From Planctomycetota bacterium (GTDB taxonomy: Bacteria; Planctomycetota; GCA-002687715; DRQF01): DNA of 25,378 nucleotides. The stretch's first letter is position 1, and each line of letters starts with the position of its first letter. A program made the translations under genes and the position numbers. The DNA lies in contig JALTLO010000172.1 of the NCBI GenBank assembly GCA_027001995.1, forward strand, positions 8,293 to 33,670, written 5' to 3'. The notes under the pieces were generated by a model that was not told where the DNA came from, searched no databases, and saw only the letters and a list, made by a program, of their open reading frames with translations. Below, one piece after another: positions 3,262 through 18,476 of this stretch.

Positions 3262-4038
3262 ATGACGGAATTGCGCCAGATAACAGCATTGACGGCTCTC
3301 CTATTGTTGGTTTGTTGTTCCAATGGTCCTAATAGCGAGTATGCCGAATTCGGCAACCGAGTGAATACTTCGGGATTTGGGCACAAATATGCTCAGCCAG
3401 ATGACGCCACGGAGTTTGTCATTGGCCCTGGCGATTCCATCAATATCCAGCTCTCAAACAACCCAGCTCTCAGTGGCACCCAACAAATTCGTCCAGAGGG
3501 TGATATCACCATGCCATTTGTTGGCAACATCAAGGTGGCTGGCCTCACCCCAAGTCAAATACGGGACAAGATTGAGATTCTCATGAGCCCGTACATTCGG
3601 GAAGTGACCGCTCAAGTGATTCCGGTCAGCATTGTCAGCAAGAATATCTACATCATCGCCAAGGACCTCAACGGGGCTCTCCAATTCCAGTCTTTGGCCA
3701 TGGCCGGCGATATGACTCTCTTGGATATGTTCGCCCAAATTGGCGGTGTTCCTGTTCTGGCCGATGACTGCCACGTCAAAGTCATTCGGGGCGACCCACT
3801 GCATCCCAAGGTCTTGAATATTAACGTGCGGGACATGGTCGTGAATGGCTTCACTGCCGCCAACATTCAGATGAAACCAGATGACATGGTCTATTTGCCA
3901 CCAACATTTTGGGCTCGGGCAGCCATGGCTGTACGCGAAGTCACCAGTCCTGTGCGTGAGCTCTCCAATAGTCTGAATGGTGTTCTTGGTGCTGTCAGCA
4001 TCGCCCAAGGCAATCCCCGTCGACGTGGTAGGAGGTAA
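3262..4038 (+). CDS. wza: Polysaccharide export (OPX/Wza-like) lipoprotein, short form, 258 aa
   Basis: ATG at 3262 follows a GAAGGTG Shine-Dalgarno and is preferred over the TTG at 3184. It has a lipoprotein signal (MTELRQITALTALLLLVCC), the Poly_export motif IGPGDSINI...IRPEGDITMPFVGNIKVAGLTPSQI and an SLBB-like segment ending NIQMKPDDMVYLP. Confidence 0.88.
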   Translation: MTELRQITALTALLLLVCCSNGPNSEYAEFGNRVNTSGFGHKYAQPDDATEFVIGPGDSINIQLSNNPALSGTQQIRPEGDITMPFVGNIKVAGLTPSQIRDKIEILMSPYIREVTAQVIPVSIVSKNIYIIAKDLNGALQFQSLAMAGDMTLLDMFAQIGGVPVLADDCHVKVIRGDPLHPKVLNINVRDMVVNGFTAANIQMKPDDMVYLPPTFWARAAMAVREVTSPVRELSNSLNGVLGAVSIAQGNPRRRGRR

Positions 4039-4046
4039 TAGAACTG

Positions 4047-5705
4047 ATGTCAACAACAGAGATACAAACAGTTCTTCCACAACCTGTTGAACAGGATACT
4101 GGGCCGGGGATTGCAGAATACTTGGGTATTTTTCGTCGCCGTATCAAGCTGATCGTCATTCCCTTCTTCTTGTCCTTTGTTCTGTCGGCAGTGGTGGCCT
4201 ATGTCATCCCCGCAGAATTCACTCAGTCGACCAAATTCAAGATTTCAGATCCAGGTCTTACGCGAAAACTGACGTCTGGTGTTACGGGTGGCATCACCCA
4301 CAAACCCCTGCTTCGTACCATGAGTTCTGACATCAAGAATAGGCGTTTCTTAGGGCCTATTGTCGCCAAGGTTGGCCTCAACGAAGGATTCAATCTGAAT
4401 GACCCTCTAGAAGAAACCGATTTCTACGCCTATGTCTTCAAGAGTCTGAAGATCACCGTTCCGAATCAAAGGGAGCGCTTGGCTCCTGGACCTGATCTTG
4501 TGACGTTTACTTACACTGGGCGTAGTCAGGCCCGTAATGTTGAGTTCCTCAACGAGATTCGTGATTCCTATAAAGAACACTTCCGTCGCCAGTACCGCCG
4601 GACGATTCGTGGAATCTATGATCAGCAGCGAGCGGCCGTTCGTGATGCCCGAGATGCACTTGCCTTGATGGAAGCTGGGTACGAAGATTTTCGCAACAGC
4701 GAGGACTACCGCTTGGTGGGCATCAAGAAGGATCATCTCAAGCAGATGGCTGACCTTCGAGACCGGGAAAACACATTGCGCTTCAAGATCAATGGTATTC
4801 AGTCACAGCTTCAAGCCATCAAGATGCAGCTCCGTGACCAAAACCAAACTTCAAGCGTGCTAAACCAAGTAGCCAATCCTCAGCGTGCGATTCTCAAAGC
4901 TGCCATCGCCAATGAGCAGCAAATCTTGAATGACTGGGTGGTTGTCAAAGGTTGGACCGATCTCATTCCAGCAGTGGTGGCTCAGAAAGAGAAGATTGCC
5001 CAAATGCAAGAGCAGTATTTGGCACTTCCGGTCAACATCAACGGCGGTAGCGTGTTGCAAATCAATCAGGTCTACACCCAGCTCCAAGTGGATCGCAACA
5101 ATTTGCAACGGGAGCTCAACGGCGCCCGCGACATCTTGGGTCAAGTGACTCGACGTATCGAGACCCTTCAGGGAGAGCTGTCAAAAGAAATTGACCTGAC
5201 CAGAGCGGATGCCAAGTTCTTGGCTGACATCGCTAAGCTGAAGCACAAAGAGGCGATCATCTCCGGAAAATTCGACAAGGTTCAAGGGGAGTGGCGCAAT
5301 ATCCAAGGGGAGGGCAGTGATCTCTTCGAGACCCTCGATTTGCCCAATCCGAACACCAAGCCTGTGTTTCCGTCGATTCCACTTTTCCTGGCGATTGGTG
5401 CTGGTTTTGGTTTGATCCTGGGACTGGGATTAGCATTCCTCAAAGAGTTCTCCAGCCAGACTTACTTGACCCCGAATCAAGTCCAGAGCCGCCTGACTGT
5501 GCCCATCTTGGGTGAGGTGAGCGAGATCAAGACTCAAGAAGAGTTGGATGCGGAGCAGGGGCGAAAGAGGCGCAACTATGTGGTGGGTGGTGTGATTGTG
5601 GCAATCATTGCATTTGTGCACTATTGCTACTTTGAAGCTACCATGAGCCACCTATTGCCCCCCATTGTCATTGACGTTTTCGATATGTTGTACAAGGGAA
5701 GTTAG
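4047..5705 (+). CDS. Polysaccharide co-polymerase / chain-length determinant (Wzc N-terminal/GumC-like, no fused kinase domain)
   Basis: N-terminal YLGIFRRR followed by a TM helix and a long Gln/Leu-rich coiled-coil periplasmic region. Then the Pro-rich PNPNTKPVFP, TM2 (AIGAGFGLILGLGLAFLKE), the juxtamembrane segment LTVPILGEV and a third hydrophobic helix near the C-terminus. It lies directly after wza. Confidence 0.85.
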   Translation: MSTTEIQTVLPQPVEQDTGPGIAEYLGIFRRRIKLIVIPFFLSFVLSAVVAYVIPAEFTQSTKFKISDPGLTRKLTSGVTGGITHKPLLRTMSSDIKNRRFLGPIVAKVGLNEGFNLNDPLEETDFYAYVFKSLKITVPNQRERLAPGPDLVTFTYTGRSQARNVEFLNEIRDSYKEHFRRQYRRTIRGIYDQQRAAVRDARDALALMEAGYEDFRNSEDYRLVGIKKDHLKQMADLRDRENTLRFKINGIQSQLQAIKMQLRDQNQTSSVLNQVANPQRAILKAAIANEQQILNDWVVVKGWTDLIPAVVAQKEKIAQMQEQYLALPVNINGGSVLQINQVYTQLQVDRNNLQRELNGARDILGQVTRRIETLQGELSKEIDLTRADAKFLADIAKLKHKEAIISGKFDKVQGEWRNIQGEGSDLFETLDLPNPNTKPVFPSIPLFLAIGAGFGLILGLGLAFLKEFSSQTYLTPNQVQSRLTVPILGEVSEIKTQEELDAEQGRKRRNYVVGGVIVAIIAFVHYCYFEATMSHLLPPIVIDVFDMLYKGS

Positions 5706-5708
5706 AGC

Positions 5709-6611
5709 ATGTATGAGGATTTCCTCGGCTTTGACCGAGCCCCATTCAACAATACACCCGATACGAGCTTCTACTTTCCTAGTGAAAGGCATAATGAGGC
5801 TTTAGCTCAGCTGCTTTACACCGTCGAAGCCCGAAAGGGTTTTGCTGTCATCACGGGTGAAATCGGAGCCGGTAAGACAACATTGTGCAGACGCTTGCTT
5901 CGCCAACTCGATGAAGACGCATCAACAGCTTTGATTACCAATCCACGATTGACTGGAATCCAGTTGCTGTACAGCGTGGCGCGAGAGTTTGGTCTTGAGG
6001 TTGACCAACAAGTAAACCGGGTCGCTATCATTGACGCCATCTATGAGTATCTCATTGAGATGATGGCTCAAGATCGCAATGTCATCTTGGTCATTGACGA
6101 AGCCCAGAATTTGCCACTCAGCACACTTGAAGAAGTGCGTTTGATTTCGAATTTGGAAACAGAAACTGAGAAACTGATTCAAATTCTCTTGCTCGGTCAG
6201 CCTGAGTTGAAGCGGAAGCTTGAGCATCCAAGCCTTTTGCAGCTGCGGCAACGGATTGCCATGCGCTATCACTTGACTGCTCTCGATCAGGAAGAGATGC
6301 AAAATTACATCCATCATCGGATGAAAGTCGCGGGCCGTCATCATTCTGTCCGGTTTTCATCCCGGGCACTGTCAATGATCTATCGCTATTCGAATGGCGT
6401 TCCGCGCTTGGTCAATCTACTTTGTGACCGGGCATTGATCACGGCATTCACCATGGAAACGAACAAAATAGCGGCTCAAGTTATCTTAGCTGCGATTCGC
6501 GAAATTGAAGGACCTGACTGGACCTTCAAGAAGGTTGAGTCACAAGAAAAATCGTCGAAGGGTCGTAAATCGTTTTTGCGGCTACCGTTTTTCGCCAATA
6601 AGACCCGATAG
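5709..6611 (+). CDS. ExeA/GspA-family AAA ATPase (PEP-CTERM/XrtA-locus type), no peptidoglycan-binding domain
   Basis: MYEDFLGFDRAPFNNTPD N-terminus, Walker A GEIGAGKT, Walker B ILVIDEAQ, LEEVRLISNLET, LLGQPEL, QLRQRI and SNGVPRLVNLLCDRAL are ExeA-family signatures. It is only 300 aa. Confidence 0.92.
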   Translation: MYEDFLGFDRAPFNNTPDTSFYFPSERHNEALAQLLYTVEARKGFAVITGEIGAGKTTLCRRLLRQLDEDASTALITNPRLTGIQLLYSVAREFGLEVDQQVNRVAIIDAIYEYLIEMMAQDRNVILVIDEAQNLPLSTLEEVRLISNLETETEKLIQILLLGQPELKRKLEHPSLLQLRQRIAMRYHLTALDQEEMQNYIHHRMKVAGRHHSVRFSSRALSMIYRYSNGVPRLVNLLCDRALITAFTMETNKIAAQVILAAIREIEGPDWTFKKVESQEKSSKGRKSFLRLPFFANKTR

Positions 6612-6637
6612 TTGTCTTAGGCAAAGAGGATTGATTC

Positions 6638-7603
6638 ATGGGTCGGATACACGACGCGCTCAAGAAAGCTGAAGAAGAGCGCAAGAAAAAACGAGCGCAG
6701 AAAGGTCAAGGCGATTTCTCGTCTGCGGCTCCTTCTGTAGCCAATCTGCCCGAGGTCGAAGAAGCAGAGCCGGCGAAAACGACGAAGCGTCAACAGCCAG
6801 TGCATCCTCGGTCTCATCCGAATCCGAAACCGAAGCCAGTGGGGAAAACCGCAGTTTCTGAACCGGCTCGGCCCGCGAAGAAAAAGGGGATTGCCGCTGG
6901 TCTGCAGAAGGCTTCCTCGACACGCATTGGACCCCCTGAAGCACAATTTGGCGAGTTGCTCTTGGCTTGGCATGCACCTTCCGACGTACGGAGTGAACAG
7001 ATCCGGTCTCTGCGGACGAACATCCTCAACCTAAATCCTACTCCAAGAACCATGGCTTTCGTGAGCTCAGTTGGAGATGAAGGAGCGAACCTGGCAGCAG
7101 CAAACTTAGCCGTTTCTTTTGCCGAAGACCAAAGCAAGTCTGTTCTTCTGGTTGATGCCAATATCCGCAGCGGTGGTTTGGATGGATTCTTCGATGTGGC
7201 TCGAGATGCTCCTGGTTTCACTGATATTCTACGGGGCAAGCTTGATCCCAACCGAGCTGTTCTGGAATCGGGTGTGCCGAACCTTTTCTTAGTGAATGCG
7301 GGCAACGAGGTCAGCAATCCTGGAGGATTGCTTTCAGCTACAGAGTTGAAGAGAATCATTGCAGAGTGGTCAAAGCGATTTGATCGTGTCTTGATTGTCT
7401 TGCCTCCAGTTGGCGAAGCCAATGACGCTGCGGTGGTCGGAAGAGAGGTTGACGGAACGGTAATGGTTATCAAGCTCGGATCAACGCCCAGACGAGAGAC
7501 GGAGCACGCCTTAGATGCCTTGGCTCATTCTGGTGTGCGTGTTCTTGGTTGTGTCGTCACCAACGCTGGTGCGGTCAAAGATCCTTCTGAATCGAAGTCA
7601 TAA
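6638..7603 (+). CDS. CpsD/CapB-family bacterial tyrosine kinase homologue, predicted catalytically dead (pseudokinase)
   Basis: BY-kinase scaffold: EQIRSLRTNI, AANLAVSFA, VLLVDAN, PGFTDIL, PNLFLVNAG...NPGGLLS, VDGTVMVI, T.R and VLGCVV. Walker A reads GDEGAN (no Lys), Walker A' reads DAN and Walker B reads VLIVLPP (no Asp). There is no Tyr cluster. Confidence 0.85.
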   Translation: MGRIHDALKKAEEERKKKRAQKGQGDFSSAAPSVANLPEVEEAEPAKTTKRQQPVHPRSHPNPKPKPVGKTAVSEPARPAKKKGIAAGLQKASSTRIGPPEAQFGELLLAWHAPSDVRSEQIRSLRTNILNLNPTPRTMAFVSSVGDEGANLAAANLAVSFAEDQSKSVLLVDANIRSGGLDGFFDVARDAPGFTDILRGKLDPNRAVLESGVPNLFLVNAGNEVSNPGGLLSATELKRIIAEWSKRFDRVLIVLPPVGEANDAAVVGREVDGTVMVIKLGSTPRRETEHALDALAHSGVRVLGCVVTNAGAVKDPSESKS

Positions 7604-7617
7604 CGGCATTATCATTG

Positions 7618-8820
7618 ATGGACATTCTCTATCTCGTTCATCGGATTCCCTACCCACCGAACAAGGGTGATAAAATTCGCTCTTATCGTTGGCTGGTGCA
7701 CTTAGCAGAAACCCATCGTGTTCACGTGGTGACTCTCTACGATGACCCACAAGATCTTAAACACTTAGAAGCTCTGGGGAGGCACTGTGCCACGTTGAGA
7801 GCCCACCGTTTGCGGACATGGACGGCGAAAGCCCGGGCCCTCGTGGCTTTGGCGGGAGACCGCCCCCTCAGCCTTCCCTATTTCTATCATCCCGAAGCCA
7901 AGAAATCGGTTGCTGAGATTCTCAGGAATGAGTCCATTGATTTGGCTTTGATTTATTCTTCGTCCATGGGGCAATATGTGGATGAGTTGGAGAATGTCCC
8001 AAGAATTCTTGACATGGTTGATGTGGATTCGGCGAAGTTCGCGACCTACAGCGACTTGGGAGGTGGTTTTTCAAGCCGTATTTACGGCTTGGAAGCACGG
8101 CGTTTGGCTCGTTATGAAGAAGAACAAGTTCGTACTCTTGATCGGGTGATCCTTTGTACAGAACCCGAAGCAGAACTCCTCTCCACCCGGGTTCCTGATG
8201 CCAATAAAGTTGTGGCCATTGGTAATGGGACGAACCCACCTAATGCTGCCTTGATTCCCGTTTCCCGGCAACCAAGAAGCATTGTCTTTGTCGGGGCTAT
8301 GGACTATCAGCCCAATGTTGACGCAGTGATTTTTGCTGCCAAGGAAATCATGCCCTTGATTCGCAAAGTGAAGCCAGAGGTTTCTTTTGTCATCGTTGGC
8401 AGAGACCCAAGTGTTGAGGTGCGCAAGCTTGGGAATCTTCCGGGCATTGAAGTCACTGGGGCGGTGGATGATATTGGGGTCTACTTGAAAGACGCCTGCT
8501 TGAGTTTAGTGCCCTTGCGGATCGCTCAAGGGATTCAGAACAAGGTCTTGGAAGCCATGGCTTGGGCCCTTCCTGTGGTGACCAATAAACGAATCGCAAA
8601 CTCTCTTGAGTCCGATGTGGGGGATGTCCTATGTGCAGCGGAAACGGCAGAGGAATATGTTGAACAAGTGCTGCGACTCTTGGATAGCGAGGAGCTACGC
8701 TCCAGGATTGGCCAGGCTGCCAGGGAATTCGTCATTGAGTCGTTTAGCTGGCAGCCTCGACTAGCTCAGCTTGATGCCCTAATCGAAGAAGTTGTTCCCA
8801 TGAAACGAGTGCGTGTATGA
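7618..8820 (+). CDS. Glycosyltransferase family 4, PEP-CTERM/XrtA-system type (TIGR03087-like)
   Basis: Characteristic N-terminus ILYLVHRIPYPPNKGDKIRSY, DMVDVDSAKF, FVGAMDYQPNVDAV and PLRIAQGIQNKVLEAMA. ATG at 7618 (alternative TTG at 7615). Confidence 0.9.
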   Translation: MDILYLVHRIPYPPNKGDKIRSYRWLVHLAETHRVHVVTLYDDPQDLKHLEALGRHCATLRAHRLRTWTAKARALVALAGDRPLSLPYFYHPEAKKSVAEILRNESIDLALIYSSSMGQYVDELENVPRILDMVDVDSAKFATYSDLGGGFSSRIYGLEARRLARYEEEQVRTLDRVILCTEPEAELLSTRVPDANKVVAIGNGTNPPNAALIPVSRQPRSIVFVGAMDYQPNVDAVIFAAKEIMPLIRKVKPEVSFVIVGRDPSVEVRKLGNLPGIEVTGAVDDIGVYLKDACLSLVPLRIAQGIQNKVLEAMAWALPVVTNKRIANSLESDVGDVLCAAETAEEYVEQVLRLLDSEELRSRIGQAAREFVIESFSWQPRLAQLDALIEEVVPMKRVRV

Positions 8821-9938
8821 CCATTCACGTCGTCCATTTGGTTACTTCATTCGACATGGGGGGGCTGCAAAACGGTATCGTCAACCTCATGAACCATGGG
8901 GATAGAAATCGAATCAAGCATACTGTTTTGTCCATTCGTTCTGATGTTCAACTTAAAGAACGTCTGCACTATGGGGAGGTTCGTTCCATCGGTTTGGGAC
9001 CTGGGCGTCATGGGGATGCCTACAAACAAATCGCAAAGGTGTTGAAAGATATCGAACCGGATATCTTGCACACCCGAAATTGGGGCACCTACCCCGATGG
9101 CATTCTTGGGGCTCGAAAGGCTGGGGTGGCGAAGCGCGTCCATGGCTTTCATGGGCGAGACCTTTCGAATGCTCAAGGTGAATCCTTGAAACGTCGGATC
9201 ATGGGCAAGATTCTCTCCTATGCAACCGATAGAATAATTACACTAACTGCTTCTATGAAGCGGGAATACATGCGTGACTATTGGGTCCAGGCCAGTAACA
9301 TCGAGGTGATTCCCAACGGCATCGATTTGGGGAGACTCGATAGTTTTCAAGCGGACGTAGCTTGTCGTTCTTCATTCACGGTCGTGTGTGTTGGAAGATT
9401 GGATGCCGTGAAGAACTGGCGTTTGCTCATCCAGGCATTCGCCGCCATGAAGCATCGGGAAGCGAGCGATCTGCTTGTGATCGCTGGCGATGGAAATGAA
9501 AAGGACCGGATTGAAACAATGGCTCAAGAGGCTGGCATTTCAAAATCCCTGAGGATGCTCGGTGCACGCAGTGACGCTCCTTGCGTTATGAAAGCGGCCG
9601 ATGTCTATGTCCAACCGTCCTTCTATGAGGGCATGTCGAATACCATTGTTGAAGCCATGGCCTGTGGCGTGCCAGTTGTTGCCACCCGGGTCGGAGGCAA
9701 CGAAGATGTGGCTGGTGTCGAGGACACAGCCGTCTTGGTGGAATCAAATAACGTAGGTGAGATGGCCCAAGCCCTCGATCGTCTCAAGTCAGACCGTGCA
9801 AGTACTCAACGCATGGCCTCCGCGGGGCGGGCAAGGGTTCTAAGTCGATTCGGCTTAGAAAAAATGGTGTCTTCCTACGAGTCAGTTTATGAAGATGTTG
9901 TCGGGCAAGATCGTGGTGAGGGGAGGAACATCGAATGA
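8817..9938 (+). CDS. Glycosyltransferase family 4, PEP-CTERM/XrtA-system type (TIGR03088-like)
   Basis: HVVHLVTSFDMGGLQNGIVNLMNH, PDILHTRNW, VHGFHGRD, VGRLDAVKN and PSFYEGMSNTIVEAMACGVPVVATRVGGN (EX7E). ATGA overlap with the upstream GT. Confidence 0.88.
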   Translation: MTIHVVHLVTSFDMGGLQNGIVNLMNHGDRNRIKHTVLSIRSDVQLKERLHYGEVRSIGLGPGRHGDAYKQIAKVLKDIEPDILHTRNWGTYPDGILGARKAGVAKRVHGFHGRDLSNAQGESLKRRIMGKILSYATDRIITLTASMKREYMRDYWVQASNIEVIPNGIDLGRLDSFQADVACRSSFTVVCVGRLDAVKNWRLLIQAFAAMKHREASDLLVIAGDGNEKDRIETMAQEAGISKSLRMLGARSDAPCVMKAADVYVQPSFYEGMSNTIVEAMACGVPVVATRVGGNEDVAGVEDTAVLVESNNVGEMAQALDRLKSDRASTQRMASAGRARVLSRFGLEKMVSSYESVYEDVVGQDRGEGRNIE

Positions 9939-11302
9939 GCGTTAGATTTGCTTTTATGCTTGTTCTCGTGCCAATCCTCTTGGTCTTGACTATTCGGAAG
10001 CCCATTTTCGGCCTCTACGCCACCATCGTCATGTATTACTTTCGCCCCGATGTATGGGATCAGCCTTCTTGGTGGCAACCAGTTTTTTGGTTGACCATCA
10101 CCACCATCGTTTCCTGGGGTATACGTGTCAAGACTGTGCGTATGCCCGGCATCATGCTGATGGCCATCGCTGTGATTCCAGGGATGATTCTGTCTACACT
10201 GACGGCGGCTATGGATAGCGATGTCTCTATGGAGGCGACGGTCGTTGTCATCAAGCTGATCATCGCCATGTTCCTTGTCGTCCAGCTACTCCGCACCCCG
10301 AAGGACGTTTTGACTTTCTTATGGATGAATGTTCTGGCGAACTTGTGGACATTGAAGTCTGTGGTTTTGATCACTGCCGGTGGCGGCGATGCTTCCCGTG
10401 CGAACGTGGCTGCAGCCCAAGGGGGTGGGGCAAACTACCTGGCTATGACTTTCGTCATGGCGCTTCCTTTGCTCTACTTTCGCTATCTCCATGGTAGCCC
10501 CCGAGAGAAAAAGGCAGCTTTTTGGATCGCTCCTTTTATTCTCTTCGGCATCATGGGGACGGGTTCCCGCGGCGGTTTCCTGACGATGTTTATCATCATG
10601 GTCTTGATGACCATGCGTTCCAAGCAGAGAGCTAAAGGATTTGCCACCATCGCTGCGATGTTGGTGATCTTTATCGTTGTCACACCGTCAGAAAAATGGG
10701 ACCGATTCGGGACAACATTCGAAACGAATACGCAGCAACGGGGATTTGCGGCGAATAGTCGTCTCGAATTGTGGCGAGCTGGATGGAAGATGTTTTTGAC
10801 GTCGCCGATTACTGGCGTTGGTCACGACAATTTCCAAAAGCTTTCGCCCCGCTACACCGGCTACTTTGCTGGTAAGACCCCTATACCATACAGACCAGAA
10901 CTAGAAGGAACCAAAGGGCACAGTGGATTTGTGGCTCACAGTACTTGGGTGCAAACTCTCGCGGACGGTGGCTTGGTTACGTCTTTTCCCTTCTTCGCAC
11001 TCTTCTTCATGTGCTGGGTCGCTCTACGGCGGACCAGAAGAATGCCACTTCCTCCTGAAGAGAAACAGGAGGTCTACATGATTAGTCAGATCTATGAGCT
11101 GACACTCCTGGCTTTTGTCATTGCTTCTACCTTTGGTAGCCATTTGAAGATCGACTTCCTTTGGTGGTACTTTGGTGGTGTTGCGGCCTTTGAGATTATT
11201 GTCCGCCAACAAGTGGCCCAGTGGCAACAACTTCAACGCAGCGTTTTCCTTCAAGAGCAGAATGCTCATAAGGCTGCGCAAACGACGGAAGCGACGATCT
11301 AA
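9935..11302 (+). CDS. O-antigen ligase/Wzy-like membrane protein (putative polymerase or O-glycosylation ligase)
   Basis: About 12 hydrophobic segments, GGANYLA, TGSRGGFL, SRLELWRAGWKMFLTSPITGVGHDNF and VAHSTWVQTLADGG match the Wzy_C/O-antigen ligase pattern. The N-terminal YYFRP motif is like that of exosortase-locus ligases. Confidence 0.85.
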   Translation: MSVRFAFMLVLVPILLVLTIRKPIFGLYATIVMYYFRPDVWDQPSWWQPVFWLTITTIVSWGIRVKTVRMPGIMLMAIAVIPGMILSTLTAAMDSDVSMEATVVVIKLIIAMFLVVQLLRTPKDVLTFLWMNVLANLWTLKSVVLITAGGGDASRANVAAAQGGGANYLAMTFVMALPLLYFRYLHGSPREKKAAFWIAPFILFGIMGTGSRGGFLTMFIIMVLMTMRSKQRAKGFATIAAMLVIFIVVTPSEKWDRFGTTFETNTQQRGFAANSRLELWRAGWKMFLTSPITGVGHDNFQKLSPRYTGYFAGKTPIPYRPELEGTKGHSGFVAHSTWVQTLADGGLVTSFPFFALFFMCWVALRRTRRMPLPPEEKQEVYMISQIYELTLLAFVIASTFGSHLKIDFLWWYFGGVAAFEIIVRQQVAQWQQLQRSVFLQEQNAHKAAQTTEATI

Positions 11303-11305
11303 ATC

Positions 11306-13207
11306 ATGTGCGGAATTGCAGGCGTTGTGGCGCCCAAAGATCGCGAAGACGCGAGTTCGCGAGATGTCAGGCGGATGTGTGCTCAACTGGCCAAGCGAGG
11401 TCCAGACGGCATTCACCAAGAACGCCTTGATGGTGTCGTGTTAGGGCATTCAAGGCTCGCCATCATCGACCTCAATACCGGCGATCAACCCCAAGGGAAT
11501 ACGGACGGTTCGGTGAAAGTCGTTGTTAACGGCGAGATTTACAATTACATCGAGTTACGTGCGGATCTCAAGGACCAAGGATATCAGTTTAAGACGGAGA
11601 GTGATATCGAGGTCATTCCCCATCTCTACGACAAATATGGTGATGATTTTGTACAACACCTTCGTGGGATGTTCTCCATTGCTCTGTGGGATTGTCGCCA
11701 GCGACGTTTAGTTTTGGTTCGTGATCGTTTGGGCAAGAAGCCCCTCTACTACGCCGAGTACAAAGACCGTTTTTATTTCGCCTCAGAATTGAAGTCTATT
11801 TTGCAAATCGAAGATATCGAGTTGCATACAGACTTGGAGGCCATGGAAGACTTCTTTACCTTCCAGTACATCCCTTCGCCAAAAACGGCGTTTCAGGAAA
11901 TTCGCAAGTTGCCCGCCGCAACCATGATGACGTGGAAGGACGGCAAGTCTTCGTTTAGGAAGTACTGGGAACCATCCCTCGTGGTCGACATGACTATGAC
12001 GGAGGAAACCGCCTTAGAGCGTTTCGAAGAACTCTTCGACGAAGCAGTTAAGCTGAGGTTGCGTTCAGATGTCCCTTTGGGGGCCTTCTTGTCCTCCGGT
12101 ATCGACAGCACTTTGGTGGTTGCCAGCGCAACAGGGCTCCTTGATACTGCACTGCGCACGACGACCATCGCTTTTGATAGCGCCAATAATGATGAAGTGC
12201 GTTTGGCAGAAGAAGTGGCCAAGAAATTCGGCACGAATCACCAGACGAAATCGATTCACGCCGATGTGCGGGAGACCCTTGAGCGCGTGAGTTCCTACTT
12301 GGATGAGCCTTTGGGTGATTCGAGTACGCTTCCCAGCTTTCTCGTTTCCAAAGCGGCCAGAGAAGACGTTAAAGTCGCTATTTCTGGTGATGGTGGTGAC
12401 GAAAGCTTTGGCGGATATGCGAGGCGCTACTCTCAGAACCTTATGCTCGACAAATGGCGCCGTAAACTCCCTGGCGATCTTGGCAGGAAGCTTGTTGGGC
12501 TTGTGTCGTATCTTTATCCCAAAATGGATTGGGCTCCCCAGCCGTTTCGGTTGAAATGGGGATTGCGAAATCTGTCGGTGACCGCCGAGGAAGCCTATTT
12601 TCTCGATATGTCGGTGTTTCGTCCAGAGAACAAGAAAGAATTGTACCGCTCTGAATTTCGCCAAGGCCTCGATGGGTATGACGCAAAGAATGTCTTCATG
12701 AGGCATTTTGCCGAAACAGAAGGCCATGATCTTCTCACCCGCATATTGAAGTTGGACTTGAACACTTACTTGGCGGATGGCGTGTTGGCAAAAGTCGACC
12801 GCATGAGCATGGCGAACTCATTGGAAGTTCGTTCGCCTCTTCTCGATCATAAAGTTGTCGAATTTGCATTTAGTTTGCCTCGATCTCTCAAGATGCAAGG
12901 GGGGCAGGGCAAACGAATTCTCCGAGCTATGTCGTCGAGGCGAGTGGGGGACGAAGTTGCGAAGGCTCCCAAAAGTGGATTCGCCCCGCCCTTGGCCAAT
13001 TGGTTACGCAATGAATTGCGAGAAGTCTTTCAAGATTTCGTTTTAGAAAACTCTCATGGCGTTCATCTTCTCTTGGAAAGTAAAACCATTCGAAAAATGT
13101 TCGAAGATCATTGCGCCAAGAAAGCGAATCATGCCCGTCCGCTTTGGCTGATCCTGAGTTTTGAAATGTGGTTCCGATCTTTCGGCAGTCGAGCTCGTCT
13201 CCTATGA
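11306..13207 (+). CDS. asnB: Asparagine synthase (glutamine-hydrolysing)-like amidotransferase, probably amidating polysaccharide sugars
   Basis: N-terminal MCGIAG (Ntn Cys), RGPD, LGHSRLAIIDL, NGEIYN, RDRLGKKPLYY, FASELKS, FLSSGIDS, SGDGGDESFGGY and KVDRMSMANSLEVRSPLLDH. It is embedded among glycosyltransferase genes. Confidence 0.92.
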   Translation: MCGIAGVVAPKDREDASSRDVRRMCAQLAKRGPDGIHQERLDGVVLGHSRLAIIDLNTGDQPQGNTDGSVKVVVNGEIYNYIELRADLKDQGYQFKTESDIEVIPHLYDKYGDDFVQHLRGMFSIALWDCRQRRLVLVRDRLGKKPLYYAEYKDRFYFASELKSILQIEDIELHTDLEAMEDFFTFQYIPSPKTAFQEIRKLPAATMMTWKDGKSSFRKYWEPSLVVDMTMTEETALERFEELFDEAVKLRLRSDVPLGAFLSSGIDSTLVVASATGLLDTALRTTTIAFDSANNDEVRLAEEVAKKFGTNHQTKSIHADVRETLERVSSYLDEPLGDSSTLPSFLVSKAAREDVKVAISGDGGDESFGGYARRYSQNLMLDKWRRKLPGDLGRKLVGLVSYLYPKMDWAPQPFRLKWGLRNLSVTAEEAYFLDMSVFRPENKKELYRSEFRQGLDGYDAKNVFMRHFAETEGHDLLTRILKLDLNTYLADGVLAKVDRMSMANSLEVRSPLLDHKVVEFAFSLPRSLKMQGGQGKRILRAMSSRRVGDEVAKAPKSGFAPPLANWLRNELREVFQDFVLENSHGVHLLLESKTIRKMFEDHCAKKANHARPLWLILSFEMWFRSFGSRARLL

Positions 13208-14370
13208 AGGTCGTGAGTGTCTCCACCATTTTTCCGAGCTTAGAGATTCCTGCTCCAGGAATCTTCATCAAAGAACGCTTGCTAGGCTTGCCCGAGGATA
13301 TCGAAGCATCCGTCTTACGCCTAAGGCCGTGGTTTCCAGGTCTGGGGCTTATCAAACCTGAGCAGCGACTTTCCTATCCGGCTCAGGAGTCGGTCCAGGG
13401 TTTATCTGTTGCGGATCGCAGATTCTCTTACCTTCCAGGAATTCAGAAGCATCGTGATGGTGATCTTTTGGCCAGGGGATTAGATCGATTCCTTAATGAA
13501 TTTGGCGGAAGTGTTGACCTGATCGACGCTCATTTTGCCTTCCCCACTGGCTTTGGGGCGGTGAAGGTTGGAAAGAAACGGGGCAAACCAGTATGCATTA
13601 CACTTCGTGGCACTTTGGCATCATATGCCCATGACGCCCGACGGACTAAACTCAAAGAAGCTCTTCTTGGAGCCGATCGAATCATCGCCGTGTCGGCTTC
13701 TCTTGGGAAATTGGCCGAAGAGATTACGGGACAATCTTTGGATGTCCGTGTGATAGGTAATGGCATTGATGTGGACAAATTCGTCCAGATGGATCGCTGT
13801 GTATGCCGTCAATATCTTGGTCTTCATGAAGAAGGCCCGACCTTGTTGACCGTGGGGGGGCTGGTACCGCGCAAGGGAGTTCATCGCGTCCTAGATGCAC
13901 TACCTGCTCTCCTGAAGGATCATCCGAACCTCAAATATTTGGTGGTGGGTGGGGCCAGTGTGGAAGGTGATTTCGCTGCAGAGGTTAAGTCGAAAATTAT
14001 TAACTTGGGGCTTGAGAAAGTGGTGGACTTGGTCGGAGCTGTTGACCATGGCTCATTGCCAACCTACTACGGGGCTGCTGACGTATTCTGTCTTTCTACT
14101 GCCAATGAAGGGTGGGCTAACGCTCTTCAAGAGTCTCTCGCTTGTGGCACTCCAGTGGTAACAACGGATGTCGGCGGCAATCGAGAAGTTGTTGGCAGCG
14201 AAAATCATGGAATTGTTGTTCCATTTGGCGAGCCTGATATCCTGCGGGATGCTATTGTAGACGCGCTCAACAGAGATTGGGATCATGAAGAAATCTCTCG
14301 TTGGGGCCGCCGGAGGAGCTGGCGTGACGTTGGAAAAGAAGTAGCCGAGGTTTTCCGGGAGATAGGATGA
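13204..14370 (+). CDS. Glycosyltransferase family 4 (TuaC-like)
   Basis: ATG at 13204 overlaps the asnB stop (ATGA) and gives MKVVSVSTIFP...PGIFIKER. Motifs: DLIDAHFAFPTG, ITLRG, IGNGID, VGGLVPRKG and EGWANALQESLACGTPVVTTDVGGN. Confidence 0.9.
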   Translation: MKVVSVSTIFPSLEIPAPGIFIKERLLGLPEDIEASVLRLRPWFPGLGLIKPEQRLSYPAQESVQGLSVADRRFSYLPGIQKHRDGDLLARGLDRFLNEFGGSVDLIDAHFAFPTGFGAVKVGKKRGKPVCITLRGTLASYAHDARRTKLKEALLGADRIIAVSASLGKLAEEITGQSLDVRVIGNGIDVDKFVQMDRCVCRQYLGLHEEGPTLLTVGGLVPRKGVHRVLDALPALLKDHPNLKYLVVGGASVEGDFAAEVKSKIINLGLEKVVDLVGAVDHGSLPTYYGAADVFCLSTANEGWANALQESLACGTPVVTTDVGGNREVVGSENHGIVVPFGEPDILRDAIVDALNRDWDHEEISRWGRRRSWRDVGKEVAEVFREIG

Positions 14371-16439
14371 GCGCGCCAAAGCGAAGTACTTGGATCGTCA
14401 CGGCCATTGTCGCTCTCGCTTTTGCTCTTCGACTTGTGGGTGTCTTCGATGAAGCACTCCCATTTAGCTTTTATCCTGACGAAATCAACAACGTCGAAAG
14501 AAGTGTCAACTTCTACAATCCGGCGACTGGCTTTGAGCTCAACCCTCATTGGTTTCACAAACCAACACTTGGCTACTATCTCAACTTTTTTTGCTTTGGC
14601 GTTTACTACCTATTCGGTCACTTCATCACGGGTCAATTCGACAGCGCAAATGATTTTGCAACGGCTTTCCTCAACCAAGAACGTACAGGTTTCTACGTTA
14701 TTGGACGGCTGATTCAGGTGTTCTTCGGTAGCTTGACCGTATGGGTGACCTATCGGGCTGGTCGATTGCTCCATGGAAGACAGTTGGGATACATCGCAGC
14801 CTTTTTCTTGGCGATTGCACCGGCGCACATTGAGTTTTCTTGTCTGGTCAAGAATGATGTTTCGTCGTGTTTCTTGGCATCCTTGGCGTTTCTGGGGTGT
14901 CTTCATGTTTTGCGATTGGGGCGGGGCAAAGACTACTTTTTCGCCGGTTTCATGATCGGGGCGGGCTGGGCCACTAAGTATGTCCCTCTGACTTTGGCAC
15001 CCAGCTTGTTGGCAGCACATTTACTTCGTCCAGTTGACGAACTCTTGGGCCCCAAGAAGCATCGCTTGCTTGTTCTTGCTGGTTTGGCCTTTCTCCTGGC
15101 AGCTTTCGCCGGTTCGCCATTCAATTTCCTCGATCCCGCAGGCTACCATGCATCAATCAAGAGAATCGTCGATGGGGTGGGAGGGGTCTTCTTTGGCGCT
15201 GGTGAGGTGGATTCCATGAAGTATGGACTCCTCGAATTGGCTCGCTACGCCTTTGCCAAGACTGTCAGGGTGGAAGTTTTTACTTTGCCTTTGTCGATCC
15301 TTGCCTTGTTGGGGTTGATGTTTGGGTTGAAGGAAGTGGGGAAGAAAAAAGCTCTTCTTCTATTGGGATGGGTCTTTGTGACCTATGTTGTTTTGGTGGC
15401 ATTCAACGCTCAGCGAGTTCGCCCCAATCACATCATTGCAGTCATGCCAGCTCTCGCATTGTTGTCAGGCTTAGGGTTGATGGCAATCGGCGCCACGCTT
15501 GCCCGTCTCACAGGCAAGAAACAAGGGCTGATCATGGGCCTGTTTTTGGTGCCGCTTGTCATCCCCTTGGGTGGAACTCCTGCGGATGCCATTGCGACTC
15601 AATTTCGCCGGGTGAAAAGGGAGCCTCCTCAGTCATTGGCACTGCGATGGATGGAAGAAAATTTGGACGAGGGGGCAACGATTCTCAATGTGGCCGAAGT
15701 TCTACCGCTTATTTCTTCCCGTCCTCGGCAAGAATGGCTGCAAACTCGCATCTCCTTTGAGTTGGCTCTTTCTGAGCGCTACTTAGCTGACAACCGTGAG
15801 AGGCTGGCGCGGGCCTCGGCTAACGAAGTAAAGGCATTGCGCCTGGGAGCGGCCCATCATGAGCACCGTTTGATTTGGTGGAGGACCCAGGCAAAGAAGC
15901 TCTCTTTGAGCATGGCAGCGGCACCGTCCTCGAAGTTTAAGCGTTTCGACAATCTCATCATGCTGAGTCCATGGCAGACGGAGAAGAGTGAGAAAGTGTC
16001 TTCGGCGGCATTCGGTTTCAACGATTTGTGGGATCGTTTTCCATTGCCATCCGTGGGGCGTCTTCGAGAACAAGTTCCTGGCCTTCAGGACTTGCCACCT
16101 GTGGAGTGCTATCGCGGGGCTGCCAATTTGGATCGCAGTCAACTGAGCCTCCCATTGCGTGTTCGCTTGGGTGTCCTTCCTAATCGCCCGGTTGATTTCG
16201 TCGTTTGCAGTGAATCTTCTTATGGTAATTTTGTTCGACCAGAAGAAGGGAGTCGCCCTCCAGAAGTGAGCCGACGAAAACGTGCGAGTTTCAAGACTTG
16301 GGCTGCTTTCTACGATGACCTGAAGGCCCACTACAATTACTGGGAATTCTCGGGTGATCGGAGTCTCGATTTGTGGAGTGTTCGCATTTACGATCTGAGG
16401 CAGCGATTGCCCGCAAACACCGCTACGCGACTGCGCTGA
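14367..16439 (+). CDS. GT-C fold membrane glycosyltransferase (ArnT/PMT-like, family 39/83) with a long C-terminal extracytoplasmic region
   Basis: After TM1 (LAFALRL) comes the acidic YPDE motif, followed by WFHKPTL, GRLIQVFFG, AAFFLAIAP, KND and GAGWATKY. It has about 11-13 hydrophobic helices and then about 270 hydrophilic residues. ATGA overlap with the upstream GT4. Confidence 0.8.
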   Translation: MSAPKRSTWIVTAIVALAFALRLVGVFDEALPFSFYPDEINNVERSVNFYNPATGFELNPHWFHKPTLGYYLNFFCFGVYYLFGHFITGQFDSANDFATAFLNQERTGFYVIGRLIQVFFGSLTVWVTYRAGRLLHGRQLGYIAAFFLAIAPAHIEFSCLVKNDVSSCFLASLAFLGCLHVLRLGRGKDYFFAGFMIGAGWATKYVPLTLAPSLLAAHLLRPVDELLGPKKHRLLVLAGLAFLLAAFAGSPFNFLDPAGYHASIKRIVDGVGGVFFGAGEVDSMKYGLLELARYAFAKTVRVEVFTLPLSILALLGLMFGLKEVGKKKALLLLGWVFVTYVVLVAFNAQRVRPNHIIAVMPALALLSGLGLMAIGATLARLTGKKQGLIMGLFLVPLVIPLGGTPADAIATQFRRVKREPPQSLALRWMEENLDEGATILNVAEVLPLISSRPRQEWLQTRISFELALSERYLADNRERLARASANEVKALRLGAAHHEHRLIWWRTQAKKLSLSMAAAPSSKFKRFDNLIMLSPWQTEKSEKVSSAAFGFNDLWDRFPLPSVGRLREQVPGLQDLPPVECYRGAANLDRSQLSLPLRVRLGVLPNRPVDFVVCSESSYGNFVRPEEGSRPPEVSRRKRASFKTWAAFYDDLKAHYNYWEFSGDRSLDLWSVRIYDLRQRLPANTATRLR

Positions 16440-16678
16440 GCTTTCTTTCTTACCTATTATGTTGTGTTGTATATAAAAAACGACGATCAGGAGTGATTTC
16501 CTCATGGGCTTTCGAGGCAAAATGGACGATAAGACGGGGTGCAAGGCGAGTTATCACAACCTGGAGCATGAAAATAATTTGGGGTTATTATTCGAGAACC
16601 ATGTGTAACCCATCCTAAGTTGTTTTCTATCTATAGGTAAGAAAAGTCGTCTCGAATCAAGATTTTACGTCTTTTCAG

Positions 16679-16706
16679 TTGATGGACATAGCGGCAAGAG
16701 TATACT
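16679..16706 (+). promoter_or_regulatory. Candidate sigma70-type promoter for the priming transferase/deacetylase unit
   Basis: TTGATG (16679-16684), a 16-bp spacer, then TATACT (16701-16706), within a 426-bp AT-richer intergenic region. Confidence 0.45.
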
Positions 16707-16865
16707 GGCGGCACTTCCAGGTGGAATTTCTTGCCGGGAAGGACTTTTCGTTGCCAATGAGCCAATTTAGACGCCTATGACTCTGACGGGTCTCTTTTTT
16801 TCAAAGAGATCGTAGTCTAACGACTTGTGCCTGTATCATGATGATGCTGTGTCACGTCATTCAGG

Positions 16866-17537
16866 GTGGCCGCAAGAGATATTGCACCTTTGGGTGCTGA
16901 TTGGATGAACATGATCCTGACCTTAGGGACAGCGACGATTGCACCAAGGAAGCGTTATGGAACGCTTAAGGGTGCTGTGGACCGCCTGCTTGCGCTGGTT
17001 GGTCTGATCGTTCTTCTGCCTCTGTTGGCTCTCATGTGCGTCATCATCAAGATGACATCCCGTGGTCCGGTCTTCTTCCAACAGGAGAGAGTTGGCCAGG
17101 GGGGCGTTTGCTTTAAGATCCTCAAGCTACGAACCATGATTCAAGATGCAGAATCGTCCACTGGCCCGATTTGGGCCCAAGACAACGATCCCCGGGTCAC
17201 ACGTTTTGGTCGGTTCATGCGTTTGAGCCATTTGGACGAAATGCCTCAGCTCATCAATGTTCTTATCGGCAATATGAGTTTGGTGGGGCCCCGACCAGAA
17301 CGTCCTGTATTCGTTGAGCAATTCAAGCGTCAAATCCCAGACTACAGCCACCGCCTGGATGTGAAACCGGGTATCACTGGCTTGGCTCAGGTCTACCACA
17401 GCTACGACTCGACTCTCCGCGATGTCCGAAAGAAGCTCGCCTACGATCTTCTTTACATCAAAAAGATGTGTTTGATGACCGATATCATTATCATCTTCTT
17501 GACGGTCCGCTGCCTGACTGGGCGCGGCGCGAAGTAG
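16866..17537 (+). CDS. Priming (initiating) sugar transferase, stand-alone Bac_transf/WcaJ-C-terminal phosphoglycosyl transferase
   Basis: KGAVDRLLA plus a single hydrophobic helix, SRGPVFFQQERVG, KLRTM, DPRVTRFGRFMR..HLDEMPQLINVL.GNMSLVGPRPERP, KPGITGLAQV and KLAYDLLYI. The start is uncertain: GTG 16866, ATG 16905 or ATG 16911. Confidence 0.93.
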   Translation: MAARDIAPLGADWMNMILTLGTATIAPRKRYGTLKGAVDRLLALVGLIVLLPLLALMCVIIKMTSRGPVFFQQERVGQGGVCFKILKLRTMIQDAESSTGPIWAQDNDPRVTRFGRFMRLSHLDEMPQLINVLIGNMSLVGPRPERPVFVEQFKRQIPDYSHRLDVKPGITGLAQVYHSYDSTLRDVRKKLAYDLLYIKKMCLMTDIIIIFLTVRCLTGRGAK

Positions 17538-17567
17538 GAGCGAGTCATTCCTTCTGTTCAATCTACA

Positions 17568-18476
17568 TTGCCGATCCGCGCCTTAGGTGCGTCTGCAAAA
17601 AACGCCATGACCATCGACGTGGAAGATTACTTTCAAGTCGGTGTCTTTCAAGATCGGCTGCACCCAGGTGAATGGTCGAACTTCGAGCTTCGCATTGATC
17701 GCAATCTTGAGAAATGCTGCCAGCTCTTGGATGACGTGGGCGTGAAAGCCACATTCTTTGTCCTGGGGTGGGTGGCGGAGCGGATTCCAAAGGCAATCAA
17801 GCGCCTGGCAGATGAAGGCCATGAGGTTGGCAGCCATGGTTTCAATCATCAGCCCATTTGGAAGCTTGATGAAAAGGAATTCTCGGAAGACATCGCTCGG
17901 TCTCAGGGTGTCTTAGGAGAGATCCTGGGGGCAACTCCGACCTGTTATCGAGCGCCCTGTTTCAGTGTGACCGCCAAAACACTCTGGGCTTTGGATATTT
18001 TGTTTGAGGCTGGCTTCACCCATGATTCCAGCATTTTTCCAGTGCAACATCCGGAATATGGCATTCCTCATGCCCCGGAGGGTCTTCATCGCATCCAGCT
18101 TCCCAATGGCGGTGAACTAAGTGAGTTCCCCATGACGGTGGGCAGTCTACTGGGTAAGAAGCTCGCTTTCTGTGGGGGCGGTTGGTTTCGCCTGTTTCCC
18201 TATGGTTTGATCCAAAGGTCACTGAAGAAGAGCCAGGGTACTCGCCCGTTTGTCTTCTATTTGCATCCTTGGGAGCTTGATCCGGACCAGCCGAAGCTTT
18301 ATGACCGAACTGGACGTTTGGGCCGTTTCCGGCACTACGTCAACCTAAAGACCAACGAAGCGAAGTTTCGCAGGCTATTGGCGGACTTCGAATTTGGCAC
18401 GATGCGCTCCGTCTTCGACGCCACAGTCGAGGCCAACGGGGAGCTCCCCTTGGTCGACTATGGTCTTTCCAGGTAG
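17568..18476 (+). CDS. Polysaccharide deacetylase, XrtA/PEP-CTERM-locus type (NodB/CE4 domain plus DUF3473-like C-terminus)
   Basis: NAMTIDVEDYFQV, KATFFVLGWVAE, GHEVGSHGFNH, YRAP, DSSIFP, GGGWFRLFPY and FYLHPWELDPDQP. The metal-binding motifs look intact. There is no signal peptide, and the TTG start is approximate. Confidence 0.9.
   Translation: MPIRALGASAKNAMTIDVEDYFQVGVFQDRLHPGEWSNFELRIDRNLEKCCQLLDDVGVKATFFVLGWVAERIPKAIKRLADEGHEVGSHGFNHQPIWKLDEKEFSEDIARSQGVLGEILGATPTCYRAPCFSVTAKTLWALDILFEAGFTHDSSIFPVQHPEYGIPHAPEGLHRIQLPNGGELSEFPMTVGSLLGKKLAFCGGGWFRLFPYGLIQRSLKKSQGTRPFVFYLHPWELDPDQPKLYDRTGRLGRFRHYVNLKTNEAKFRRLLADFEFGTMRSVFDATVEANGELPLVDYGLSR

Follow-up and report, generated by a model that had tools for sequence, protein, structure and literature searches.

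A possible helix-borne link between an intact ExeA-type ATPase and a dead BY-kinase in a Planctomycetota polysaccharide-export cassette

The locus described here lies in a 25,378-nucleotide stretch of contig JALTLO010000172.1 (the whole of it hereafter called the window) from the genome of a Planctomycetota bacterium (G000, 92% complete), and comprises three genes coding for a polysaccharide co-polymerase (PCP), an AAA+ ATPase of the ExeA type and a homologue of the bacterial tyrosine (BY) kinases with degenerate catalytic motifs. A first-pass annotation had described them as consecutive, which is borne out by three confirmed open reading frames (ORFs) on the same (+) strand, 4047-5705 (552 aa), 5709-6611 (300 aa) and 6638-7603 (321 aa), separated by gaps of 3 and 26 bases. 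The features of this trio are the following, in window coordinates:

4047..5705, + strand: PCP-2 type polysaccharide co-polymerase, without kinase domain and with three hydrophobic helices (TIGR03007, 88.3 bits, cut-off of 278.85 not reached)
5493..5519, + strand: LTVPILGEV segment, PCP residues 483-491 (sequence; TIGR01006 matches residues 428-494; similar segment in 17 of 17 relatives)
5709..6611, + strand: ExeA-type AAA+ ATPase, exopolysaccharide-linked (TIGR03015-like) subfamily (TIGR03015, 297.2 bits, cut-off 324.5; PF13401, 94.8 bits)
5856..5882, + strand: intact Walker A of the ATPase, GEIGAGKTT, residues 50-58 (sequence, alignment)
6084..6107, + strand: intact Walker B of the ATPase, ILVIDEAQ, residues 126-133 (sequence, alignment)
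6564..6593, + strand: basic-hydrophobic C-terminal motif of the ATPase, RKSFLRLPFF (present across the ATPases of the order, absent from most others)
6638..7603, + strand: stand-alone BY pseudokinase (TIGR01007, 118.5 bits, cut-off of 108.05 passed; model; Foldseek)
6638..6706, + strand: N-terminal helix of the pseudokinase (MGRIHDALKKAEEERKKKR), probably a tag on which the ExeA-type ATPase docks (conservation; profile)
6995..7015, + strand: retained EX2RX2R oligomerisation motif of the pseudokinase, E120, R123, R126 (exact in 21 of 23 orthologues, last place Lys in 2)
7064..7093, + strand: degenerate Walker A, DEGAN at 147-151, Lys to Ala (alignment against BceF, Etk and Wzc)
7145..7168, + strand: degenerate Walker A', DANIR, second Asp to Asn (same alignment)
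7388..7408, + strand: degenerate Walker B, VLPP, Asp to Val (same alignment)

TIGR03015 is the best family for the ATPase, covering 267 of 269 positions, yet the match remains under the curated cut-off. The protein is an AAA domain only, lacking both a transmembrane (TM) segment and a periplasmic peptidoglycan-binding domain, and its model (predicted local distance difference test score, pLDDT, 89.3) has MuB, Orc/Cdc6 and TnsC as its closest solved folds. The first-pass annotation had called its Walker motifs intact, and this holds: K56, D130, E131, R182 (which we take to be the arginine finger) and R233 (presumably sensor II) are invariant among 53 aligned homologues, so that Walker A, Walker B, conserved arginines and AAA+ fold, the features that define an ExeA-type AAA+ ATPase, are all present. 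Its close homologues are labelled Planctomycetota. The RKSFLRLPFF motif may be a membrane- or partner-binding tail, and residues 287-298 have low model confidence. The frame is broken by one stop in two other genomes, G008 (L009:145-1044, +) and G083 (L045:7406-8299, +). The only other ExeA-like ATPase of the window's genome (contig C134, 851-1705, + strand, locus L037; 27% identity) comes after an integrase-like ORF and resembles a transposon helper, which fits the likeness of the family to MuB and TnsC.

The product of the third gene is predicted to have a helix (residues 3-23), a disordered stretch (25-100) and a folded core, with the Wzc kinase 3la6 as best Foldseek match (E 4e-18) and Etk and CapAB also matched; it stays under the TIGR03018 cut-off. 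Active BY-kinases are defined by a Walker A motif GX5GK[S/T] with the catalytic lysine, a Walker A' DXDXR and a Walker B DX2P (PMC9800525), and the window protein has neither the Walker A lysine, nor intact Walker A' and B motifs, nor a C-terminal tyrosine cluster. The earlier claim that this homologue is dead and devoid of tyrosine was therefore right (none in 321 aa, with a chance of ~5e-5 at the 3.0% tyrosine of the locus), although its wording, no catalytic residues, was slightly overstated, because D173, the first Walker A' aspartate, is retained. A frameshift or assembly error was rejected as the cause, because the dead state is shared by the orthologues: in the 23 of the order, that of the window among them, the three motifs never occur together and the tail is always free of tyrosine, whereas GK is kept in 6, DxD in 10 and the Walker B aspartate in 8, which implies that the lineages lost different parts. 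These orthologues form one starred clade (99) in a quick tree. In active kinases the octamer interface is formed by the EX2RX2R motif (PMC9800525), whose retention here suggests a ring deprived of the phospho-switch.

No second BY-kinase was found in the 92%-complete genome, nor in 21 of the 23 genomes of the order. An active kinase acting in trans in the window's genome was considered and rejected, since the other four TIGR01007 matches read as Mrp-, ParA- (two) and BioD-like proteins. The remaining two genomes, G013 and G022, have a second long-frame BY-kinase match, that of G013 being an intact, tyrosine-tailed kinase at another locus. As far as can be judged from the sequences, the usual autophosphorylation cycle is impossible here and the ATPase is the only intact nucleoside triphosphatase (NTPase) of the module in this order, as had been proposed. 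A phosphatase of the CpsB/CapC type was not found in the window's genome, which carries four low-molecular-weight phosphatase-family genes on other contigs and none in the locus. The opposite extreme to the window protein is a clade of TIGR03018 kinases over the cut-off (22 loci, L169-L196), with tails of 10-19 tyrosines, no helix and no ATPase within ~8 kb.

The PCP has neither a kinase domain nor a tyrosine cluster, as the first-pass annotation had stated together with the LTVPILGEV segment; what it missed is a third hydrophobic helix. Textbook PCP-2 proteins have two TM helices. Here hydropathy peaks lie at ~32-58, 439-466 and 511-530, and the last recurs in the PCPs of 17 of 17 relatives (median identity 28%), so that LTVPILGEV likely lies in a cytoplasmic loop joining TM2 to TM3 and not in a free tail. 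By analogy with CapA/CapB and EpsV/EcpK (PMC12004946), this loop is likely to be the part that would bind the pseudokinase. The third helix and a short amphipathic end that follow it (window 5577-5702, +) are kept in all 17 relatives.

The N-terminal helix of the pseudokinase, in which M1, G2, R3, D6, A7, L8, K10 and A11 are invariant among 10 aligned orthologues, resembles the start of proteins encoded beside other ExeA-type ATPases. Among 62 non-kinase genes directly following such an ATPase (the first gene after the ATPase in 80 loci, kinases excluded and no motif filter applied), 58 begin M-S-x-I/V-x-x-A-L by eye, and two of the four without the helix belong to polysaccharide loci whose kinase sits elsewhere and carries it. 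Ten of these partners were scanned: six match the GspB domain PF16537 (three over the cut-off), one is a TPR protein and three match nothing. With a profile made from the 62 non-kinase genes, the window pseudokinase ranks first of 3882 genome ORFs (28.9 bits). A looser pattern, with a background of 207/3882 ORFs (5.3%), was read in a kinase-picked set (60 stretches drawn from 251 sampled genomes of the phylum to which Acidovorax soli belongs), where it occurs in 14 of 20 stand-alone kinases with an ATPase within ~8 kb and in none of the 31 without (51 kinases); in two ATPase-picked sets it occurs in 17/17 and 6/6. Five of the six ATPase-linked kinases that it missed carry an internal L-L/F-E-R-A variant, which is found in 10/10 further ATPase-selected loci of the same family and was not seen by eye in eight stand-alone kinases of that family that have no ExeA-type ATPase. 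The helix is also absent from three Planctomycetota stand-alone kinases (G024, G026 and G039) whose genomes have no ATPase match at E<=1e-20. The scaffold role that had been suggested for the pseudokinase, linking the ATPase to the PCP, thus gains sequence support from a helix shared with GspB-type partners. In the literature covered, which excludes subscription journals, neither the shared helix nor a link between ExeA and a BY-kinase was found in any paper, and the passages searched in PMC5532660, PMC13453990, PMC2907700 and bioRxiv 10.64898/2025.12.21.693542 hold nothing on the question.

The same start tag (MGRIQDALHRAQ) is present in an FHA-domain protein of 198 aa, with a hydrophobic helix at its C-terminus, encoded elsewhere in the genome (contig C112, 14569-15162, - strand, locus L229). 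It is kept by the orthologues in G002, G004, G005 and G008, weaker in G003 and absent from close paralogues. No ExeA-type ATPase was found in six stretches fetched around these genes, and the single ATPase of the cassette may serve this protein as well, as its second client. At its end, contig C17 (86919-87011, +) repeats the first 31 codons of this gene exactly, probably as an overlap of adjacent contigs.

Whether the ATPase takes the place of the kinase cycle was addressed by reading the kinase motifs in ATPase-picked loci (20 Planctomycetota stretches and 80 loci of many phyla) and in the kinase-picked set. Excluding truncated or broken ATPases and duplicate loci, 62 ATPases have a stand-alone kinase within 4.5 kb. 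An intact kinase with at least two tail tyrosines is the partner in 28 of these pairs, one with intact motifs and fewer tyrosines in 10 (of which one is truncated at the edge of its contig), and a pseudokinase in 24, of which 19 belong to this order. The sister clade of the ATPases of the order (96, starred; L044, L047 and L050) consists of three loci, all with intact, tyrosine-tailed kinases, and in the kinase-picked set pseudokinases account for 8 of the 31 ATPase-free kinases against 2 of the 20 ATPase-linked ones. The proposed correlation between kinase decay and ATPase retention therefore fails, and the ATPase was there first and does not in general stand in for the phospho-cycle: by these sequence comparisons, it is an ancestral part of the cassette that also works beside active kinases, and the kinase died later in this order. 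In a quick tree, a single branch (SH-aLRT 92) separates the full set of 62 kinase-linked ATPases from 59 linked to GspB-like proteins, and by this placement the kinase-linked ones are a dedicated polysaccharide subfamily found in four phyla. The window ATPase falls on the same side as the loci of G393, G273, G375, G257 and G245, whose ATPases pass the TIGR03015 cut-off. In one alphaproteobacterial family, 105 of 151 genomes carry the ATPase.

The trio is embedded in a larger cassette, with these neighbours:

3262..4038, + strand: outer-membrane polysaccharide export (OPX, Wza-like) lipoprotein, likely outer partner of the PCP (PF02563, 70.3 bits; TIGR03027, 96.4 bits, cut-off of 180 not reached)
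7618..18476, + strand: rest of the XrtA-type cassette (profile matches; gene order largely common to relatives)

The start of the OPX gene was placed at ATG 3262, which has a purine-rich stretch upstream, instead of TTG 3184, where the ORF finder begins. The downstream genes code for two GT4 glycosyltransferases (TIGR03087 and TIGR03088), a Wzy-type polymerase (TIGR03097/PF04932), an amidotransferase (TIGR03108), a further GT4 enzyme, a PMT-type transferase, an initiating sugar transferase and a deacetylase (TIGR03006). Most genes of the locus have their best match in families of the XrtA/PEP-CTERM system (TIGR03027, TIGR03007, TIGR03015, TIGR03087, TIGR03088, TIGR03097, TIGR03108, TIGR03006 and TIGR02917), those to TIGR03087 and TIGR03006 being above their cut-offs, and because of this the PCP-ATPase-kinase trio is a catalogued arrangement. 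The order PCP-ATPase-pseudokinase is kept in 17 of 17 assessable loci (18 were fetched; the contig must reach far enough), and the median identity among relatives is far higher for the ATPase (59%) than for the kinase (34%) or the PCP (28%). Exosortase (PF09721) was not found in the 92%-complete genome; it is present in 7 of 22 relatives, in four of them ~5-9 kb from the pseudokinase, and the ATPase is retained in 16 of 23 genomes in which no exosortase was found. A role of the ATPase in serving exosortase or protein sorting was rejected, because it stays without a detected exosortase. The TIGR03016 barrel was not found in the window's genome either, nor was any PEP-CTERM substrate (TIGR02595), in a search that matched no control genome either. 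Three weak Wzx-family matches lie on other contigs. Within the cassette, a 690-aa membrane glycosyltransferase of the GT-C type (PF13231; window 14367-16439, +), kept in relatives, suggests that proteins or lipids also receive the glycan, though no exosortase was found. A 1365-aa TPR protein (window 18458-22555, -; TIGR02917, 85.7 bits, under the cut-off) converges on the cassette end, and G002, G014 and G017 have homologues in the corresponding position.

The reading that we favour, with somewhat more confidence than doubt, is that the ATPase docks on the helix and assembles or remodels the PCP-OPX channel, each binding step being deduced from sequence and analogy. Within a Wzy-dependent exopolysaccharide cassette, the trio would constitute the control module at the inner membrane: the cytoplasmic loop of the PCP would bind, complete and hold the pseudokinase fold, as in CapA/CapB and EpsV/EcpK, and the pseudokinase would likely still form rings through EX2RX2R. 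Through its helix, which sits on a tether of 75 residues, the pseudokinase would recruit the intact ATPase, which, by analogy with the assembly of secretins by ExeA-ExeB, would assemble or remodel the channel and not push polymer. The death of the kinase in this order would have left the ATPase as the only intact NTPase of the module.

Several known systems bear on this reading. EcpK/EpsV of Myxococcus xanthus and HfsB/HfsA of Caulobacter belong to a PCP-2 subfamily independent of phosphorylation, with a BY pseudokinase (PMC12004946), so that this part of the earlier note, offered as possibly new, was already published. As in the window, these are stand-alone BY-kinase folds without working Walker motifs or tyrosine tail, with a proposed scaffold role and a partner PCP lacking a kinase domain in a Wzy-dependent cluster, and the deletion of EcpK leads to loss of the polymer (PMC12004946). 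The window pseudokinase differs in keeping the whole fold, EX2RX2R and an N-terminal GspB-type helix and in adjoining an intact ExeA-type ATPase gene, and the window PCP in its third hydrophobic helix. PMC12004946, in the parts consulted, speculates on cycles of binding and unbinding and names neither a driver nor an ATPase partner. The XrtA/PEP-CTERM cassette (PMC1569441) shares the catalogued trio, TIGR03018 being its kinase family. However, the PCP, ATPase and kinase of the window are all under the XrtA cut-offs, its kinase is dead whereas 32 of the 32 distinct TIGR03018 kinases over the cut-off that were read are intact, and exosortase and barrel were not found; the word ATPase does not occur in the main text of the PEP-CTERM paper (PMC1569441). 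ExeA and GspA belong to the same AAA+ family as the window ATPase, and there too the gene of the partner, often with the same helix, follows that of the ATPase; this partner, ExeB or GspB, is a scaffold toward an outer-membrane channel (PMC4098917, PMC9239104), the domain variety of GspB has been described (PMC9239104), and the cytoplasmic ATPase domain of ExeA is needed for its complex with ExeB (PMC4098917). By contrast, the window ATPase lacks the TM and peptidoglycan-binding parts, lies on a separate branch and is partnered by a cytoplasmic pseudokinase that bears the helix.

The requirement of an AAA+ ATPase for a Wzy-dependent polymer counts as support for the favoured reading. In the promonan pathway of Sphingomonas sp. 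LM7, the gene for the AAA+ ATPase PrmE is grouped with wza, wzz and the gene for a CapB-type kinase, and deletion of prmE abolishes the polymer and can be complemented; PrmE was called a second ATPase not earlier linked to polysaccharide assembly, and the kinase of this pathway, unlike that of the window, was described as bona fide (PMC11340318). Similar EpsF/EpsG-type clusters hold a larger Cdc6-like ATPase, which scores only 12-21 bits on the ExeA profile and is no more than a distant relative (hhalign E 5e-9), and this is a second AAA+ family tied to polysaccharide export, perhaps the family of PrmE. Such an ATPase lies 4-7 kb from the kinase in five of eight EpsG-type stand-alone-kinase clusters in the family of G262 (L241:15722-16999, -; L244:12604-14013, +; L246:12810-14243, +; L247:12712-14148, +; L248:12601-14148, +); the prm gene order was found in none of the eight clusters fetched.

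A number of points weigh against docking and remodelling by the ATPase. PrmE may belong to another AAA+ subfamily, as judged from the similar clusters and not from the PrmE sequence. The Wza-Wzc channel is reported to stay assembled through the phospho-cycle (2026, PMC13469938), hence there is less need for repeated disassembly. EcpK/HfsB systems have no described ATPase of this kind and the Caulobacter control genome has no TIGR03015 match at E<=1e-30, so that pseudokinases do not in general need an ExeA-type ATPase. As for the helix, the looser pattern was written after the data were seen, 22 of the 31 ATPase-free kinases belong to one clade, the tree yields one starred independent pair (five in total), too few for a test, and the pseudokinase of L211, with no ATPase within 8 kb, has a helix-like start. 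Moreover, 19 of 39 GspB proteins beside an ATPase (in 40 loci chosen for short ORFs, whose single ATPase-free locus is also without it) lack the helix, and in the order of G309 it scores in 22 of the 30 best GspB matches and not in the other 8, which means that GspA-GspB pairs can exist tagless. Finally, being amphipathic (moment ~0.6) and basic, the helix could instead bind the membrane or self-associate. A predicted complex of the ATPase (residues 1-270) with the helix (1-30), from 53-row alignments, scored 0.29 against a mark of 0.32 and counts neither way.

Part of this evidence fits an alternative in which the pseudokinase is a passive PCP scaffold like EcpK, while the ATPase acts elsewhere (on the PCP, Wzy, the TPR protein or the tagged FHA protein) and the helix binds the membrane or another helix. 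EcpK binds EpsV directly, with no ATPase described for it in the parts of PMC12004946 consulted, and both the amphipathic character of the helix and its absence from roughly every second short GspB protein encoded next to GspA agree with such a scheme. We regard it as rather unlikely, since the helix tracks the ATPase across unrelated families (GspB-like, TPR and BY-kinase), and its absence by pattern from all 31 ATPase-free kinases is not explained by a general membrane anchor.

Still less probable is the proposal of the first-pass annotation that the ATPase acts as an export motor, brought in or retained as a stand-in for the phosphorylation cycle that was lost. Its being the only intact NTPase of the module, the lack of a second BY-kinase in most genomes of the order and of a CpsB/CapC-type phosphatase in the window's genome, the ring motif retained while the phospho-switch is gone, and the recurrence of kinase decay in ATPase-linked lineages (tree labels) would all fit. 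However, the intact, tyrosine-tailed partners, which include the whole sister clade, and the pseudokinases without ATPase argue against it, the independent pairs give no ATPase-pseudokinase trend, though underpowered, and a cytoplasmic ATPase is poorly placed to push a polymer made in the periplasm. No result shows the ATPase to drive export as a motor, and ExeA, the closest studied relative, is an assembly factor. That the kinase homologue is a decaying remnant in a cassette working without it seems very improbable: the loss of all catalytic motifs and of the tyrosine tail and the long branches in the kinase tree are what decay would leave, but all 23 genomes of the order have an open frame over the matched part, and helix and EX2RX2R are conserved although the lineages lost different motifs.

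Pseudokinase/PCP pairs and the need of an AAA+ ATPase for a Wzy-dependent polymer are thus known, and what goes beyond them is the hypothesis of a helix-based adaptor. The description of EcpK left open how PCP-2 systems with a dead kinase switch, and the TIGR03015 family had been named with its function undescribed; one helix of ~20 residues bears on both questions. A wider proposal, which we put forward tentatively and with more doubt than confidence, is that a dedicated AAA+ remodeller is a fourth core part of a widespread Wzy-dependent branch, gripping the BY-kinase ring by a portable GspB-type tag, that this let the kinase die in a whole planctomycete order, and that there ATP-driven pulling on the tag, and not tyrosine phosphorylation, switches the PCP ring, with further tagged clients possible, such as the FHA membrane protein. 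If true, it would give a mechanical answer to the cycling of pseudokinase systems. These cassettes are common in environmental bacteria, and an energy-dependent assembly step, if it exists, would bear on the biology of biofilms and activated sludge and on the engineering of polysaccharide export.

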